Assembly: GCA_016287875.1 (NCBI GenBank) | Contig: JAEEXQ010000005.1 | Span: 5,909 to 69,908, forward strand | From: Bacteroidales bacterium | GTDB lineage: Bacteria > Bacteroidota > Bacteroidia > Bacteroidales > UBA932 | Direction: 5' to 3' | Length of the DNA stretch: 64,000 nt | Part shown: positions 42,199 to 48,361 of the stretch, piece by piece | Position numbering within the stretch: the first letter of the stretch is position 1 | Layout: each line of letters starts with the position of its first letter | Program-made: the position numbers and the translations under genes | Notes under the pieces: generated by a model | What the model was told of the DNA's origin: nothing | What the model saw: the letters and a program-made list of their open reading frames with translations, nothing else | Databases searched by the model: none

Positions 42199-44580
42199 AT
42201 GAGAGCTGCCCGTAGAATTACACTGCTCACAGTGCTTTTCCTGCTTTCCGCGCTGGCGGTGAAGGCGGAGGGCTTTCCTCTGCCGGACTCCCTTCTTTTC
42301 CGCTATAACACTTTTTCCACCTGGTTCTCACCGGAAAAGGTGTATCTGCACTTCGACCGTTCCTGCTATAAGGCCGGGGAAACTGTCTGGTTCAAGGGCT
42401 GGGCGCAGGAGGCCTCCTCGCTGTCAGTTTTGCCACCAAGCAATTTCTTGTACGTGGAGGTCCTGGATTCCGGTGGGGACGCTCTTGCGAGGGTGAAGAT
42501 AAAGCGCTCGGACGGCGGCTTCCCGGGTTATCTGCAGCTGCCGGACAATCTGTCCACCGGGGATTACACCATACGGGCATATACCCTCTGGCAACTGAAC
42601 AACGACGACGAGTATCTATTCCACGACAAGATCAGGATAGTGGGAGATCGTACGGGAGAAAACAGGGCCGAAGAAGCCCTCCCTGCCGGAGTGGAGATTA
42701 GTTTCTGGCCGGAAGGAGGGCGCTATTTCGCCGGCCACAAGGCGGTGATCGGATTCAAGGCCGTGGATTCGCGCGGGCGAAGCGCGGATTTCAGCGGCGT
42801 GCTGGTGGGTGGCAACGGAGATGTCCCAAGGCCCGTTTCCACCACCCACGATGGAATGGGCGTCATTGAATTCCTTCCTGAGCCAGGCGTTGAATACGTC
42901 ATCCGGGATGCTTCGGGCCGCGTTTTTCCGCTGCCATCAACGGCGACGGAAGGGGCTATGCTGCATTTGTGGTCCAATGCGGGAAAGTACTATATAGGGG
43001 CGATGGGATATGGCGGTGGCACCGCCTCTCTGCTGGTGCGCGACGCTTCCAGGATCAGGCCCATAGCAGAGATAGAACTCAGCGGGGAAGAAGGGGTGAT
43101 GATCGTGGAAAGGCATTTTTTCCAGAGCGGGATAAACCACATTCTTCTTGTGAACGAGAGCGGTTCCATACTGGCGGAGAGGCTGTTTTTCGTGCGCGAC
43201 GGGGCGGAGCCTGTGTGCAGTATGGATATGTCGCAGTCCTCCGACGGCAAAGTCGCTCCGGTGAAAGGAATCATCTCCCTGAGCAATCCGGACGGAACTC
43301 CGCTGGACGGGAATTGCTCGGTTTCCGTAGTGAGGGAGGCCCTGAAGGACTGGCAGCAGAGCGACGGCATTACGTCCTACATGGCCCTGAGCAGCGAACT
43401 CAAGGGAAGCATCAACGATCCGTTCTACTACTTTGACCCGGATATCCCGGAACAGGAAAGAGATGCCGCGCTGGATATGCTGATGATGATCCAGGGCTGG
43501 CGGTACTACGATATCGACAAGATAATCGACAAGAAAAAAGGTAAATTGCAGTTCCGCTATGTGAGGGAAAGGATGCAGGAGATACGCGGATACATTGCGC
43601 GCTGGGGCTCTTCCAGGATGCCCAAGAAGTTCACGTTCACCTTTATGATCCCGAAGTTGAATGAGCTGCAGTCCAAAAGAGTCGAGCGCGGAAGGCGATT
43701 CGTCATAGACAGCCTGGATTTCCCGGAGAACACCGAGTTCCTGATCAATATAGGCACTTCGCGCCTTGGGGCGGTCTATCTTCCCAGATGGGACGGCGAC
43801 AAGGTGGCGGATCCGCACGTGTACAAGGCTGCGCCGGGGTATTCTAAGGACGGCGGATCCGTTCCTCAGGTGCTGGAAGTGCCGGCCTCGGGCGATACCC
43901 TGCAGGCCGTAGTGGTCGTTGCGGACTATCCGGATCAGGACCTGATGTTCGGAAGAAGCTACGACAAGGATTTGGAATTCTTCAAGGACCAGACTCTGGT
44001 AGAGTATCTGAGCACCAGGCAGGCGCTGTTCGAATACGACGGCGAATATATGTACAACCGTAGCCGTATGAGGTCTTCGATCTTTTCGGAAAGCGAAGAA
44101 GATCCCGCGATGGATGAGGATGAATCCAAGACCGGAAAGGTGAAGCTTATAGTGGATGACGAGGAAGCTTCGTGGTGGAGTTTCGACATGCTCCGGCTAG
44201 GCGACCTTCGCAGTTTGAGCATTTCCACGCGCCCCGATCCTGTTTACGGGGGAGAGGGCGGCGTGGTTTACATTAAAGTGAAACCCGGCGGAATGCGCCG
44301 TAGCGCGGAAAGGAATCCCTCGTTGCTTTATTTCATACCCCTTGGATATCAGCAGCCCCGATACTTTGAACCGCCCCTTGCCGACGATGGCCGGCCCACC
44401 ACCCGCAACACAATTTGGTGGAGCCCCCTCGTCGGGATCAGCGGAGGCCGCGCCGAAATCTCCTTCCCCGGCGGCGCCTCTGCCGAAGTACCATACACCG
44501 TGCGCATTGAGGGAATATCGGCCGACGGCCGTCCCTTCTCGCGCCATTGTGCAATTGTGCCTACGCGAAGGTATCTATAA
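42199..44580 (+). CDS. MG2-like domain outer-membrane/secreted protein
   Basis: EKVYLHFDRSCYKAGETVWFK, FWPEGGRYF, LDMLMMIQGWRYYD, RNTIWWSP, YTVRIEGISADG pattern common in Bacteroidetes. Confidence 0.75.
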   Translation: MRAARRITLLTVLFLLSALAVKAEGFPLPDSLLFRYNTFSTWFSPEKVYLHFDRSCYKAGETVWFKGWAQEASSLSVLPPSNFLYVEVLDSGGDALARVKIKRSDGGFPGYLQLPDNLSTGDYTIRAYTLWQLNNDDEYLFHDKIRIVGDRTGENRAEEALPAGVEISFWPEGGRYFAGHKAVIGFKAVDSRGRSADFSGVLVGGNGDVPRPVSTTHDGMGVIEFLPEPGVEYVIRDASGRVFPLPSTATEGAMLHLWSNAGKYYIGAMGYGGGTASLLVRDASRIRPIAEIELSGEEGVMIVERHFFQSGINHILLVNESGSILAERLFFVRDGAEPVCSMDMSQSSDGKVAPVKGIISLSNPDGTPLDGNCSVSVVREALKDWQQSDGITSYMALSSELKGSINDPFYYFDPDIPEQERDAALDMLMMIQGWRYYDIDKIIDKKKGKLQFRYVRERMQEIRGYIARWGSSRMPKKFTFTFMIPKLNELQSKRVERGRRFVIDSLDFPENTEFLINIGTSRLGAVYLPRWDGDKVADPHVYKAAPGYSKDGGSVPQVLEVPASGDTLQAVVVVADYPDQDLMFGRSYDKDLEFFKDQTLVEYLSTRQALFEYDGEYMYNRSRMRSSIFSESEEDPAMDEDESKTGKVKLIVDDEEASWWSFDMLRLGDLRSLSISTRPDPVYGGEGGVVYIKVKPGGMRRSAERNPSLLYFIPLGYQQPRYFEPPLADDGRPTTRNTIWWSPLVGISGGRAEISFPGGASAEVPYTVRIEGISADGRPFSRHCAIVPTRRYL

Positions 44581-44617
44581 CTATTTGATTATTAAATCAA
44601 TATTCCTACTCGTTAAA
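44572..44617. repeat. att-like site, copy A (left border of the AT-rich islet)
   Basis: TATCTATAACTATTTGATTATTAAATCAATATTCCTACTCGTTAAA; 39/46 identical to 46479-46524; last 40 nt 34/40 identical to 47979-48018; core TTGAT-N6-ATCAA. Confidence 0.75.
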
Positions 44618-45238
44618 CATAATTTCAATAACTGAATCAGAGCAGTACTTTGGGTTGGCTTTGACCAGTTTCTCAAAGAACTGGTGCATCCATTCTTCGA
44701 CATTATCCTTTCTGAGTCCACTTCCCTTGATCGTCAGGAAATCAACTTCATCGGTAAAGTCTTCCCAAATATAAAAGTCGTAGAAAGGCTCCTGGTAATC
44801 AATATCCCATGCCGCTCTGCCCAGAACTTCAAATCCGCTTCGTGCTGTCCTTTCTCCTCTAATCACTTCCTGCGCAACGCTCATTACATACGAACAATAT
44901 GCAGTTTCCTGATTAATCTCTATATCAAGTTCCTTGAGAATCGTGTCAAGGAGTTCAGCAAACTCAGAGGGATACATATCCAAATCTTCACCAGCTAACT
45001 GAATAATGCCGGGGGTCTCAATCCCTTTCTCCAACAAATCGACAGCCCAATACTTCCACTCTTTTGAAATGCTGGTGTGCCTGATATACTGATAAAGCAT
45101 CTTGCTAGTATCTGGGACCCTCTGCAAAAGTTCCTGTACCTTTTCAGAAGGCTCAGGATACTTCTTGATATACTCGTCCGGCACCACCGTCTCCTCTGGT
45201 GTTGCCTTGGAATGGAAGAGTCTTTCAAGCAATTTCAT
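44606..45238 (-). CDS. Hypothetical protein (islet module 1)
   Basis: AT-rich 210-aa ORF with own TATCTTTG box (45267-45260); its stop lies in site A. Confidence 0.7.
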   Translation of the reverse strand: MKLLERLFHSKATPEETVVPDEYIKKYPEPSEKVQELLQRVPDTSKMLYQYIRHTSISKEWKYWAVDLLEKGIETPGIIQLAGEDLDMYPSEFAELLDTILKELDIEINQETAYCSYVMSVAQEVIRGERTARSGFEVLGRAAWDIDYQEPFYDFYIWEDFTDEVDFLTIKGSGLRKDNVEEWMHQFFEKLVKANPKYCSDSVIEIMFNE

Positions 45239-45351
45239 ACAAACTGAATATTCTCCTTACAAAGATAATGGTTTTCTACAACAGCATTCTTTACTATTCC
45301 TCTTCTTTCAGGGATAGTCACAGGAAAGTTTGAGCCGCAGTATTATTTTTG

Positions 45352-46335
45352 CTAAAACTGCCAAGAATAAGAAATTCTTACCTTTGAGGGGACACTGATG
45401 CCATTGACCTTTGCCGGGACCCATCTTGGACAACTTTTCATTAACATATCTGCCAAGTGTTCACCCAATAGCTGGTCGTAGGAGTTAATGACGTTAGCTT
45501 TGGCCACCCATCCATTGGCGGAGATGATAAGTTCTATTTCTGATTCGCCATTTTCAAATCCAACCATTTCCGTGATATCCTGGATATTACTCTTAATCCA
45601 TTGATTTAGATTGACAGATTCATCTTCCAGATGAGCCTTCTCGTCAATATCTTTGTCCGAAGCAATCTGGTAATCAGGAATAACTTCACTTTGTGCCTTT
45701 TCCGGACTATCTGACCACAATTGATGGGTCATACTATTAAAATAAGAAGTACTGTATTGCCCGAAGATGACAATGCCTTCCCCTTTGACAAAATGATCAG
45801 ATGAGATATACAATCTGAGCGGAGTATAATACCGTTTCCAGTAATGACGTTCTGGCACCCATCTTGGTGATTCTCTAATGATTGCCAATATGCTTTCATC
45901 CAAAGTTTTAAGATCTTTGTCAGAATGATAGGGGGCCACATGTATATCCTTCACTTCTCCATTATTGGATAAAGTAAAATCAACGGAAAGCCTAAAGGTA
46001 TTCTTCGTCCTGTTATCAAGTAAGTATAGTATCTTTTTTCCAACCCAATTGCAGAACTCGGAAGGCCCCCCACCTTGGAATGAGGGCATTTGATGTGTTA
46101 ATGAAAACGCAATAGGTATCTCACCAACCATATAGGAAGAGTCGGCGTCGTGAACAAACTTATAATTATTTTGTTTTACGTTAAACTCTGGATAATAGTC
46201 GTTCCGGGTTGAATCTGTGGTGTATGAGAAGCCCGTCTGGTTTAACTCGACCTTAAGAGAATTATGCCAGGGTATCTGGGCATGGGTACTCATACAGATA
46301 CAAGATAAGGCTAATATAGAACACAGTATCTTCAT
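45352..46335 (-). CDS. Secreted protein with TonB C-terminal-like domains (islet module 1)
   Basis: Signal peptide; MPSFQGG, VDFTLSNNGEVKDI...IRESPRWVP and ELIISANG...WVPAKVNGISVPSKVRISYSW resemble TonB_C. Confidence 0.65.
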   Translation of the reverse strand: MKILCSILALSCICMSTHAQIPWHNSLKVELNQTGFSYTTDSTRNDYYPEFNVKQNNYKFVHDADSSYMVGEIPIAFSLTHQMPSFQGGGPSEFCNWVGKKILYLLDNRTKNTFRLSVDFTLSNNGEVKDIHVAPYHSDKDLKTLDESILAIIRESPRWVPERHYWKRYYTPLRLYISSDHFVKGEGIVIFGQYSTSYFNSMTHQLWSDSPEKAQSEVIPDYQIASDKDIDEKAHLEDESVNLNQWIKSNIQDITEMVGFENGESEIELIISANGWVAKANVINSYDQLLGEHLADMLMKSCPRWVPAKVNGISVPSKVRISYSWQF

Positions 46336-46478
46336 GAGTCAAAAGTACTTATGAAACATTATAACTAAACAAATAATGTTGCAAAACCAATACCAATTCT
46401 TATTGGTAGTATTTATTCCTCCTCATGTTCCAGGTGTCGGAAATAAACAGAATAAGCCAGAGCAATAACCTTGGCTTA

Positions 46479-46524
46479 TATCTATAACTTATTGATTAGC
46501 AAATCAATATTCTTCCTCATTAAA
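46479..46524. repeat. att-like site, copy E (internal)
   Basis: TATCTATAACTTATTGATTAGCAAATCAATATTCTTCCTCATTAAA; on the minus strand it reads TTT AAT GAG GAA GAA TAT TGA = FNEEEY*, the DUF2795 C-terminus. Confidence 0.75.
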
Positions 46525-46669
46525 TATATGGAGTATTGTCTATAATTGTTTTATTATCAAGCAGTTACAACAATGTTCAAAATCTCGGATAGTTACTGGG
46601 AAAGTCTGAGGCAGGGTAATAGTCATCAACTGACATGATGAATCCCATTTTTACTATCCCTGGAAAAAA

Positions 46670-47005
46670 CTACTCTTTTGTGAAATACAATTGACCGCAA
46701 TAAGAACACCCAAACTTTGGCTTGGGAATGTATGTTTCTTCACCATTCTCATTTACTTCTATCCAACCGGGCATGCAACCCCCTAATAATAACTTCCCAT
46801 TTTTTGCCTTTTTTAATCCAATGTCAGAAGGAAGACCATATAATATTGGAACAATCTTGTGTCCACAAATCTGACATTTTTTTGAATCCTTGTTTAGTTC
46901 GATAGGCTCTGCACTGAAATTAGGCAAACGATGAACCCATACTTCCTTGGCAGGCGCACAAGAAATAAACAATAGAAGTATCAACGAGAAATAAAAACTT
47001 TTCAT
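46670..47005 (-). CDS. Small lipoprotein with Zn-ribbon-like CxxC...C...CxxC (islet module 2)
   Basis: Lipobox FISC; CQICGHKIVPILYGLP...LLGGC...FGCSYCG. Confidence 0.7.
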   Translation of the reverse strand: MKSFYFSLILLLFISCAPAKEVWVHRLPNFSAEPIELNKDSKKCQICGHKIVPILYGLPSDIGLKKAKNGKLLLGGCMPGWIEVNENGEETYIPKPKFGCSYCGQLYFTKE

Positions 47006-47014
47006 ATGAATTGT

Positions 47015-47881
47015 CTATCCCAGCTTTTGATCATCTGGGAATGGGAGCTCTTCCGGCGATTTGATGTGGTCTATGGCCTTATCACGGGATATTACACTAT
47101 GCCCCAGGCGTTTTTCAACTTCTTTTCGGGCTGTTTTAGCAACATCAGCTCCTTCCTTAGCAACTCCTGCATTCTCTGACAAACCCTCCGGATTGCGCTG
47201 CTTGCTGAGTTCTGTCGCCGTTTCTTCCGCAAGAGCATTCAGAAGCAGCTCCATATTGGTCATGTTGTCCCGCAAGTTCTCTTTAGTCAGGCCCTTGTAT
47301 TTCTTATATTCACGTGTGGTCAAACCACTCCATGTCTTAGACATAAGGTCGGTCAGGAAGGCAAAATCCACTTCTTGTGTTACTCCACCTCTCTTCCATT
47401 CATCTGTGAGACCTTTGCGAATCTCAATAGTCTTGATTCGTTGGTTAATCCATGCCTCCGAATACCCCAGACGACGATAATCAGCTATGGCCTGGTCAAT
47501 ACTGCGTTCTGGATCTATGGCCTGATTGACCCGTTCCGCTGCAACCTGGGCCATCCATACTTTTATTGGCTCCGCCTTTTTAGAAGGAATGGATTCAATA
47601 ACACGAAACATCGTGGCCATGTCTGCCACATCCGTGAATCTTGGCTTACCATCCTCAGCAATCAATTTCAACCGGTTACATTTTGTAACCATTTCGCTTC
47701 CTTCCTTTACCAGCCTGTTTTTCAACACCTTCCAATAATTCCTTGCCCTATCATGGCTGGGCTGGTCAGTAAGGATCCTACAAACATCCACTATTGAGAA
47801 GAACCATTCCTGTTTCTCCTCATCCCAAGCCGTCCGGATCTTCTTGTTCTCAAACAACTGTATTTTTTCAATATCAGACAT
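47015..47881 (-). CDS. Bro-N domain (phage antirepressor-like) protein (islet module 2); start reassigned to MSDIEK
   Basis: IRTAWDEEKQEWFFSIVDVC, RNYWKVLKNRL, LKLIAEDGKPRFTD, IPSKKAEPIKVW, ENLRDNMT; TATATTTG box at 47906-47899. Confidence 0.85.
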   Translation of the reverse strand: MSDIEKIQLFENKKIRTAWDEEKQEWFFSIVDVCRILTDQPSHDRARNYWKVLKNRLVKEGSEMVTKCNRLKLIAEDGKPRFTDVADMATMFRVIESIPSKKAEPIKVWMAQVAAERVNQAIDPERSIDQAIADYRRLGYSEAWINQRIKTIEIRKGLTDEWKRGGVTQEVDFAFLTDLMSKTWSGLTTREYKKYKGLTKENLRDNMTNMELLLNALAEETATELSKQRNPEGLSENAGVAKEGADVAKTARKEVEKRLGHSVISRDKAIDHIKSPEELPFPDDQKLG

Positions 47882-47943
47882 AGCCTTATCGTTTTCTACA
47901 AATATAGCCAAAATGCACCGTAGAAGCAATTATTCTTAACAAT

Positions 47944-47970
47944 AAAAGCCCGTTCAAAAACGGGCTCTTT
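47944..47970 (-). terminator. Intrinsic terminator downstream of DUF2795
   Basis: GCCCGT-TCAAAA-ACGGGC stem with TTTTATT following on the minus strand. Confidence 0.7.
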
Positions 47971-47978
47971 AAAGATGG

Positions 47979-48018
47979 TAACTATTTGATATTCAAATCA
48001 GTATTCCTCTTCGTTAAA
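47979..48018. repeat. att-like site, copy B (right border; overlaps the DUF2795 stop)
   Basis: TAACTATTTGATATTCAAATCAGTATTCCTCTTCGTTAAA; core TTGAT-N6-ATCAG. Confidence 0.75.
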
Positions 48019-48219
48019 GAAAAAGTCGTCTTTGGTCGGGTAGTCCGGCCAGATATCTTCTATGGTTTCGTATATTTCACCGTCATCCTCGAGCTCCTGA
48101 AGGTTCTCGATAACTTCTTCGGGGGCGCCGGAGCGGTTTGCGTAATCGATCAGTTCGTCTTTGGTAGCGGGCCAGGGTGCGTCATCCAGGCTGCTGGCGA
48201 GTTCAAGTGTCCAAAACAT
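47998..48219 (-). CDS. DUF2795 domain protein (73 aa; start reassigned to MFWTLELAS)
   Basis: MFWTLELASSLDDAPWPATKDELIDYANRSGAP...DFFFNEEEY, the conserved Bacteroidetes small protein as recalled; TATATTTG box at 48253-48246. Confidence 0.9.
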   Translation of the reverse strand: MFWTLELASSLDDAPWPATKDELIDYANRSGAPEEVIENLQELEDDGEIYETIEDIWPDYPTKDDFFFNEEEY

Positions 48220-48361
48220 AGTAGTAGCGGTTTTCGAATTTCGCGCAAATATAGAGTTTTTTCCGGAATTCCAAAAGGGCCGTATCATCATTTGTTGTGA
48301 TGACTTGCCAAAAGCTTTTGGAATTGGCCTAAATTCGCGTCGGAAAACAAATTATGCATTT

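Follow-up and report, generated by a model that had tools for sequence, protein, structure and literature searches.

How can a run of AT-rich genes build up at the 3' end of a conserved bacterial gene when no recombinase gene lies beside it? The question is raised by a locus in a stretch of 64,000 nucleotides (nt) from a Bacteroidales bacterium (assembly GCA_016287875.1, contig JAEEXQ010000005.1, positions 5,909 to 69,908 of the forward strand), referred to here as the window, in whose numbering all positions are given. An island at 44572-48018 with a GC content of 0.35-0.47, compared with 0.55-0.62 in both flanks, lies between two convergent genes, one for an MG2-domain protein and the other for a small protein of the DUF2795 family. 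Its four open reading frames (ORFs), which encode products of 210 aa, 327 aa (TonB_C), 111 aa and 288 aa (Bro-N), are all on the minus strand. An initial annotation, made from the letters of this DNA, had described the DUF2795 3' end as a chromosomal cassette-capture hotspot that is loaded serially by a recombinase acting in trans. The comparisons presented below support that description, because empty and variable alleles of the locus exist. We consider it likely that the island consists of small, self-contained mobile cassettes in tandem, which entered by conservative site-specific insertion into a core sequence at the DUF2795 end, using a recombinase supplied in trans.

A repeat finder recovered a family of three direct repeats in the window, designated A (44572-44621), E (46479-46528) and B (47973-48022). 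Over 50 nt, copy A shares 84% identity with E and 72% with B. When a 40-nt degenerate consensus was used with up to 3 mismatches, the matches in the window were exactly sites A, E and B, and none of 100 dinucleotide-preserving shuffles contained a match. The extended repeat motif occurs three times in the whole 2.18-Mb assembly and all three occurrences are within the island. Uniqueness in the genome and an occurrence far beyond chance count in favor of a cassette array. The observation with which the initial annotation began, that related sites bound and divide an AT-rich island, is thus real, and two of its further statements hold as well. The genes do share one orientation, and no integrase is present, in that PF00589 has no match on the contig of the window and none was found in about 95 related loci. 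An Rfam scan of the island also returned no match.

The repeats are best understood when read on the minus strand. Each of these ~46-nt sequences then consists of the last six codons of DUF2795 (FNEEEY) and a stop codon, followed by a palindrome and AGTTA. Site B, which is the true gene end, reads TTT AAC GAA GAG GAA TAC TGA, while E reads TTT AAT GAG GAA GAA TAT TGA and A reads TTT AAC GAG TAG GAA TAT TGA. The codons for F-N-E-E-E-Y at the end of DUF2795 constitute the recombination core. This gene is present as a single copy in 39 of 41 relatives, and the C-terminal sequence of its product, FFFNEEEY, is conserved. Its ORF in the window opens with an ATG at 48291; the start that is conserved in relatives is the ATG at 48219, which yields a protein of 73 aa.

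The comparison set of about 95 related loci, all from metagenome-assembled genomes (MAGs) or metagenome contigs, comprised 34 genome loci, 10 additional regions from the same genus and 51 metagenome contigs. The 34 loci were obtained by scanning one genome per prokaryote species with GARTAYTGATTTNNNNATCAAWNAGTTA. All but one are in MAGs titled Bacteroidales or Bacteroidia, the exception being a contig in an Oscillospiraceae-labelled MAG, and the hosts named for these loci are ruminants. Two classes of site can be distinguished: native sites directly follow the body of DUF2795, and displaced sites have a conserved non-coding element in front of them in place of a gene body. The site occurs only at the boundaries of insertions. 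A profile search of the loci revealed empty sites (L057, L066, L068, L070 and L076), where GC-rich core DNA follows the gene's own terminator, as well as arrays of one cassette and arrays of two, three or more (L065, L069, L080, L081, L084, L056, L073 and L077). The alleles with other numbers and contents of cassettes that the initial annotation foresaw are therefore found among related loci. The arrays have a GC content of 0.34-0.45, compared with 0.55-0.62 in their flanks. The 10 same-genus regions and the 51 metagenome contigs present the same picture, with every copy of the site in the same orientation. About 35 complete cassettes were mapped; they measure 0.65-1.9 kb and mostly carry a single gene, which is usually, but not always, co-oriented with DUF2795. 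Among 301 sampled species of the genus, 35 possess the site or element, and among 401 genomes spread evenly over the order the full element matched in the genome of the window only. We conclude that the platform is recurrent and lineage-restricted, in rumen Bacteroidales. In 8 of 20 same-genus loci the contig breaks 56-540 nt past the DUF2795 stop codon, a pattern that fits a locus that is variable within populations. In one further locus (L046, G010:C89, 860-1648) a Bro-N protein 49% identical to that of the window is encoded directly downstream of DUF2795 where the strict site pattern is unmatched and, given this arrangement, the platform may extend beyond the 35 species.

Movement of the cassettes is indicated by their distribution. 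Copies of the window cassettes with 82-92% nucleotide identity occur in other loci, at different positions and beside different neighbors, where the adjacent core genes are about 70% identical. The unit that contains the Bro-N and 111-aa genes is 88-92% identical in L069, L067 and L082; in L069 (92%) it is third in the array behind other cassettes, and in L073 the Bro-N gene alone sits first behind DUF2795. The counterpart of the 327-aa unit in L080, with 82% identity, follows DUF2795 as the first cassette, and copies of the 210-aa unit in L052, L054 and L077 show 90-92% identity. A close relative, with flanks 91% (L072) and 97% (L055) identical to those of the window, possesses a different first cassette, and its contigs break inside the array. 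The clearest comparison of empty and occupied alleles is between L057 and L069. The flanks of these loci match on both sides (91% identity upstream and 98.8% downstream), and exactly between the core and the native 3' flank of the gene a stretch of 4.2 kb is missing from L057, so that an empty allele of the kind implied by a capture hotspot does exist. We infer from these sequences that the cassettes are mobile.

An empty allele of the exact window locus was not found, and synteny of the MG2 and DUF2795 genes is not conserved in the genus. The ancestral empty site was therefore reconstructed instead. It is predicted to read ...GACGACTTTTTCTTTAACGAAGAGGAATA|TTGATTTAATAATCAAATAGTTATAGATACC..., in which the core of B is joined to the flank of A, and this differs from the empty-allele sequence that had been proposed in the initial annotation. 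In the predicted site two convergent stop codons are 16 nt apart. The stop codon of the MG2 gene, which is 96.8% identical in L055, falls inside the displaced 3' flank of DUF2795.

The place of exchange within the junctions can be estimated from the same comparisons. A variant left end, (TA)C TGA TTTGAATATCAAATAGTTACC, recurs unchanged on the Bro-N cassette in five contexts (the window, L073, L069, L082 and L067), two of them behind the native gene and three behind different cassettes. At the opposite end, cassettes are conserved through ...TTTAAYGAGGARGAATA and diverge afterwards. When junctions were aligned for eight cassette families, the switch fell at the core. The stop codon, whether TGA or TAA, travels with the downstream unit and the crossover is therefore upstream of its second base. 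We also surveyed the breakpoints of all between-locus high-scoring segment pairs (HSPs) of at least 94% identity. Right ends fell at 0 to +4 from GAATA| in 13 of 65 cases and left ends at -25 to -11, the left edge of the universally conserved core, in 29 of 77, with a single left end on the other side of the junction. Together with the alignments, this clustering of HSP ends places exchange inside a core of 17-18 nt, TTTAACGAGGARGAATA(T), which the final DUF2795 codons make up. The initial annotation had assigned the crossover to the motif TTGAT-N6-ATCA and interpreted its variable 6-mer as a heterologous coupling sequence. Exchange instead maps upstream of this motif, and the 6-mer is the start of the next cassette, with which it travels. 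The notion that the crossover coincides with a XerC cut was also dropped; the HSP ends allow a position anywhere in the core.

These alignments define an anatomy common to the cassettes. In the left end, the Tyr codon's last base and a stop codon are followed by a palindrome of the TTGATAATCAA type, AGTTA and a GC-rich terminator hairpin. After this left end come a promoter-like TAnnTTTG box, usually one gene, a conserved element of ~135 nt that we refer to as the P arm, and the core. From 70 unique copies of the P arm, the consensus is gGGatAGTaa-N11-TGTCA...AGCCTGCCTCAGACTTCCCCTGTGACTATCC.aGTTTTTGAA.AC..TGTAACT...TGATAATAA......TAcA....CCATAT.TTTAACGAGGA.GAATA. The P arm contains a hairpin with a conserved GATAAT loop and a stem that covaries between copies in alignments judged by eye, examples being AGCTGAT/ATCAGCT, TGCT/AGCA, CTGAT/ATCAG and TATCT/AGATA. 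All the copies in the 51 metagenome contigs have one orientation. RNAalifold, applied to 14 junctions, returned 0 pairs and hence no consensus structure, and minimum free energy folding of the junctions with DNA parameters gave z values that average about -0.9; only two local hairpins are present.

With this anatomy the island can be parsed into its units, the positions of which are collected in Table 1. At junction B the native gene body meets the first cassette in an attL-like arrangement, and the left end of this cassette supplies the Tyr codon's third base and a TGA stop, together with the palindrome ATTTGAATATCAAAT, AGTTA and the terminator hairpin (GAGCCCGTTTTTGAACGGGCT). Its 288-aa product matches Bro-N in Pfam, with a weak NCBIfam match to DinD, and its 111-aa lipoprotein has no family match. 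The P arm of cassette 1, which occurs once in this genome, contains ACTATCC-type repeats, two direct and one inverted, as well as the hairpin with the GATAAT loop. The inverted partial copy of the site that had been noted as a separate feature at 46541-46567 belongs to this conserved element. At junction E the core (46508-46524, TTTAATGAGGAAGAATA) still encodes FNEEEY and leads into the left end of cassette 2 (TTGATTTGCTAATCAATAAGTTA), which has its own terminator at 46436-46484. Cassettes 2 and 3 meet at a decayed junction, in which a P-arm remnant (CTCAAACTTTCCTGTGACTATCC) is fused to GAAGAGGAATA, with deletion of ~75 nt of the P arm and of the entire left end of the next cassette; L077 retains ~85 nt of palindrome and terminator at the corresponding place. 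Cassette 3 has lost its P arm, and as a result its 210-aa ORF continues into the core, where a newly arisen TAG terminates it, while the homologue of this gene in L052 and L054 is followed by an intact P arm. An intact version of junction A, itself decayed, is found in L055 beside the same MG2 gene. The two modules of the initial annotation are therefore three cassettes, the left module being split by a fourth, decayed junction. Because two of the window junctions contain deletions and only E is intact, the array is largely a fossil of three cassettes.

Table 1. Positions of the array, its cassettes and junctions, and the two flanking genes in the window.
Feature	Position	Strand	Basis or content
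DUF2795 target gene	47998..48291	-	Pfam PF11387, E 9e-20
Junction B core, TTTAACGAAGAGGAATA on the minus strand	48002..48018	-	Breakpoints of shared blocks cluster here across loci
Left end of cassette 1	47940..48001	-	Identical left end before the Bro-N gene in five contexts
Cassette 1, 1494 nt	46508..48001	-	Bro-N/DinD-like gene 47015-47881 and 111-aa lipoprotein gene 46670-47005
P arm (cassette-end element, ~135 nt) of cassette 1	46525..46662	-	Consensus from 70 unique copies, and alignments
Junction E, sole intact internal site	46485..46524	-	Repeats and junction alignments
Cassette 2	45295..46507	-	Gene for 327-aa secreted TonB_C-domain protein, 45352-46335 (Pfam TonB_C)
Decayed junction of cassettes 2 and 3	45295..45334	-	Repeat finder and junction display
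Cassette 3	44601..45294	-	210-aa gene 44606-45238, no family match
Junction A, distal array end	44572..44617	-	Decayed core 44601-44617 (TTTAACGAGTAGGAATA) and displaced original DUF2795 3' flank (TTGATTTAATAATCAAATAGTTATAGATA)
Convergent MG2-domain gene, chromosomal flank	42199..44580	+	Pfam MG2

The arrangement of the junctions suggests a mechanism. If a cassette were to circularize, its P arm, core and left end would be brought together in a layout that looks like an attP site. Set against attP of the lambda type, the cassettes have a 17-18-nt core in common with the gene end, and the conserved ~135-nt arm holds three ACTATCC-type repeats that may be arm-type motifs. Recombination of this putative circle with the gene end would rebuild an intact DUF2795 ORF and displace the original 3' flank of the gene to the distal end of the array. 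Any junction that still holds a core could then receive later cassettes, and the internal junctions would as a result be complete attP-like sites. The junctions appear to have this form: the first is attL-like (gene body, core and left end), the internal ones are attP-like and the last is attR-like (arm, core and the displaced original flank of the gene). Such a series is the pattern expected from serial conservative site-specific integration, with a recombinase that would be encoded elsewhere and act in trans; no tyrosine recombinase ORF was found in any of the ~95 loci. Several observations weigh against this mechanism. No recombinase has been linked to the arrays, and the near-complete array genomes hold XerC, XerD and at most unrelated integrases. 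No circular cassette contigs were seen among the 51 metagenome contigs, and no carrier of the attP-like site was found in phage, plasmid and IMG/VR collections, a single viral match having proved to be a coding-sequence coincidence. The crossover can be resolved no finer than the 17-18-nt core, and the ~175 nt of conserved junction could also support homologous exchange.

What kind of enzyme might be responsible? A heterobivalent tyrosine integrase with arm-type binding sites would fit best, since the P arm is long and rich in motifs. Three PF00589 genes are present in the genome of the window, all on other contigs, and these encode a XerD-type protein, a XerC-type protein and one Bacteroidetes-type integrase of 444-464 aa, which we refer to by its contig as the C10 integrase. 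Its family is represented in 20 of 35 site-positive species and in 77 of 266 others (odds ratio 3.3, Fisher p = 0.002, with relatedness and completeness ignored) and never on an array contig; we treat this enrichment as a lead. The integrase gene itself (G000:C10:17075-19261; L098 8100-10262) is at a contig end in AT-rich DNA. In front of it are a tRNA-like 3' fragment (GCGGTGGGGACGAGATTCGAAT) and three copies of the repeat GGGATAT(C/T)TT (its own GGGATATCTTT repeats); it probably belongs to an element integrated in a tRNA gene. Homologues with E-values of at most 1e-40, the closest of them 55-63% identical, were found in 97 of the 301 sampled species of the genus. Other candidates fared less well. 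A shared additional recombinase in array-rich genomes was sought, and the extra recombinases proved to be just 25-37% identical to one another, leaving only XerC and XerD in common; no junction elements were found near 15 tyrosine recombinase genes examined in six genomes. Serine recombinases and IS110-type transposases are absent from several array carriers. A single-strand mechanism of the RAYT-like (REP-associated tyrosine transposase) HUH or IS200 type is argued against by the duplicated core of 17-40 nt. As a separate observation, the genome of the window encodes four paralogous HUH-motif proteins of ~300 aa (C89:64346, C77:52006, C77:13271 and C44:3007) that match Y1 (IS200-like) transposases weakly, and the one that was checked against NCBIfam matches REP-associated tyrosine transposases, again weakly. 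We therefore rank a mobile-element integrase acting in trans as the first candidate and Xer as the second, with an HUH-type enzyme least likely.

If XerC and XerD were the movers, the cassettes would be comparable to the integrative mobile elements exploiting Xer (IMEX) or to the dif modules of Acinetobacter plasmids, which are also mobile units that have a short chromosomal-type site and no recombinase gene of their own. The P arm would then be an accessory sequence, such as the ~180-bp sequences that are known to lie beside the Xer core in the plasmid sites cer and psi. The two Xer proteins are indeed the sole tyrosine recombinases common to all the array genomes examined, and they are the only ones in G435, an assembly of 8 contigs that is 98% complete. 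The array of G435 has no intact P arms, so this genome furnishes no argument for current activity. The cassette site resembles that of Xer at chance level only. We detected the dif site of the genus, ACACAA-TTTATA-TTATGTTAAGT, in 20 of the 24 same-genus genomes, usually as one copy. Its similarity to the cassette site plus P arm peaks at 15/28, a score that 77% of shuffles also reach. In addition, the cassette sites are all in direct orientation, a difference from both IMEX and dif modules. We consider it unlikely that Xer moves the cassettes. A mechanism without any site-specific enzyme would be RecA-dependent homologous swapping after DNA uptake, as in the minimal mobile elements of Neisseria. 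The substrate for such events exists, in that junction elements are 75-95% alike over ~175 nt and DUF2795 genes are 80-90% alike over 220 nt. There are also cases in which the downstream flank is 99% identical where the upstream flank is 74-91% identical, a contrast that shows that larger homologous exchanges do occur at the locus. If homologous recombination were to explain the cassettes themselves, breakpoints should be spread over the homologous stretches, whereas they are concentrated at the 17-nt core, and each P-arm variant stays with its upstream gene as each left-end variant does with its downstream gene. Moreover, the first insertion at an empty site would have as homology just the core and a weak palindrome, and homologous recombination would have no need of the copy of the core that is retained in each cassette. 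There is accordingly only a slim chance that homologous swapping built the arrays.

The remaining alternatives assign the island to systems already described. By its bare definition, a cis-mobilizable element (CIME) is flanked by att sites and has no integration genes (PMC5704250), as is true of the units here. In the strict sense these would be stumps of larger integrative and conjugative elements (ICEs), integrative and mobilizable elements (IMEs) or prophages, accreted at the DUF2795 end after loss of their integrase and transfer genes. The architecture corresponds to the published accretion scheme, with repeats that include a protein-gene end, units in tandem and no integrase, and tandem accretion at a protein-gene 3' end is documented for ICESt1 and ICESt3 at fda in Streptococcus thermophilus (PMC5704250). 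Both kinds of unit restore the target gene, form tandem arrays and depend on a recombinase supplied in trans, and the greater frequency of C10-type integrases in site-positive species, with the reservation about relatedness given above, is in keeping with a CIME origin. Against this stand the more than 35 complete units of only 0.65-1.9 kb, tiny, very numerous, uniform in the architecture of their ends and mostly with one unrelated gene; no remnants of integrase or transfer genes were found in the units. Nor was an integrase-bearing parent found at the site in ~95 loci or in phage, plasmid and viral collections, although MAGs may miss such elements, and the C10-family integrases are on other contigs, the copy in the genome of the window being beside the tRNA-like att fragment. 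An origin of the cassettes as stumps of this kind is quite improbable. It is more improbable still that we are dealing with an ordinary integrase-less member of a known platform, either a classical integron or cluster of attC sites lacking an integrase (CALIN), or a Bacteroidales array of the recombinase-associated acquired interbacterial defense type (rAID-1). The likeness to integrons and CALINs is considerable: a fixed chromosomal entry site, one-way cassettes that are small and mostly single-gene, a site at the cassette 3' end, shuffling between species, AT-rich inserted DNA and a content that varies between genomes. With rAID-1, which has been described as integron-like (10.1101/471110), the arrays share the bacterial order, short AT-rich co-oriented genes, conserved intergenic motifs and immunity-like genes (Ross et al. 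2019), some cassettes matching the immunity-type families Imm11, DUF4279 and MORN. The definition of rAID-1 includes a XerD-like recombinase directly upstream at the 5' side, at least 44% identical to BF9343_RS08045 (10.1101/471110; PMC12247911), and at least two co-oriented downstream genes with a GC content of at most 41% and repeated intergenic motifs (10.1101/471110). The genes, GC values and conserved junction elements given above agree with the second part of this definition. As for the first, there is no recombinase adjacent to any of the ~95 loci, and DUF2795 heads every array in its place; similarly, no IntI-type integrase lies beside the entry site, which is the coding end of a housekeeping-type gene. 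The junction element, moreover, did not turn up in 400 genomes drawn evenly from the order, in which rAID-1 is common. The site differs from attC as well, being ~175 nt of conserved primary sequence rather than a long imperfect hairpin (RNAalifold gives no pairs and the folding z is weak), and its crossover is in the core upstream of the palindrome, not at AGTTA or a G|TT box. Finally, these cassettes bring their own promoters and terminators. The resemblances drawn in the initial annotation therefore do not amount to membership in the integron or rAID families, there being neither an adjacent recombinase nor an attC-type hairpin. The system works like an integron or a CIME accretion site and yet belongs to neither the integron nor the rAID family.

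Site-specific insertion into the DUF2795 core by an enzyme acting in trans thus remains the reading that we prefer, and it has implications for how such systems are sought. Integrons and rAID arrays explain how bacteria stockpile and swap adaptive genes, and to our knowledge all the gene-capture platforms described have been recognized by their recombinase gene. Here a platform with no recombinase gene at its site recurs in a large rumen Bacteroidales genus, where 35 of 301 sampled species carry it, and on 51 metagenome contigs, which shows that searches keyed to recombinases underestimate cassette systems in gut and rumen bacteria. Full-text searches of the literature on DUF2795 and on integron-like Bacteroidales cassettes found no description of the platform. 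We can suggest, tentatively and as the less probable outcome, that it represents a new class, in which cassettes with a long, sequence-conserved attP-like site home into the coding end of a conserved gene and are moved by a host housekeeping function or by an unrecognized recombinase family encoded elsewhere. If this were so, standard integron and rAID finders would be blind to such platforms. The attB-like and attP-like sequences, now precisely defined, can serve as bait in a search for the enzyme.

The majority of cassette proteins match no family, and many possess signal peptides or lipoprotein boxes. The families that were recognized are TonB_C (twice), Bro-N, KilA-N, Imm11, DUF4279, MORN repeats, DUF2147, OMP beta-barrel, RelE toxin and AAA_14/DUF4143. 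In G435 (L118, G435:C4, 1292-5911) a 5-kb unit between two copies of the core encodes FRG and DUF4238 proteins, a PLD-like nuclease and a CAP12/Pycsar-type TIR protein, and this looks like a set of anti-phage defense genes delivered to the same site. The cargo as a whole looks like a mixed repertoire of accessory, immunity and defense genes.

Some further observations concern the surroundings of the arrays and the chromosomal dif sites. Comparison of L057 (5940-8000) with L063, L069/L114 and L070 shows 98-99% identity in the core DNA immediately past the array, and in the same genomes the upstream flank, comprising an ATPase gene and DUF2795, is just 74-91% identical. Right after the distal terminator, L069 and L063 contain extra segments of 314 nt and 636 nt. 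The region that adjoins the array seems to be exchanged as well. A candidate chromosomal dif site, ACACAATTTATATTATGTTAAGT, is present in the genome of the window at G000:C102:15411-15433, and none of the reversed-pattern controls matched. Two dif-like sites with differing central 6-mers, for instance TTTATA with TTTACG or TCCATA with TTCCGA, were seen in each of three same-genus genomes (G002 on C51 and C65, G007 on C57 and C60, and G015 on C24 and C73), and these pairs may reflect Xer-dependent elements inserted at dif. Lastly, in the same-genus relatives L031-L050 the 3' flank of DUF2795 carries a short palindrome of the TGA...TCA type with a terminator hairpin behind it, also where the species has no cassettes, and this element might be a landing pad for the recombinase or an RNA feature.

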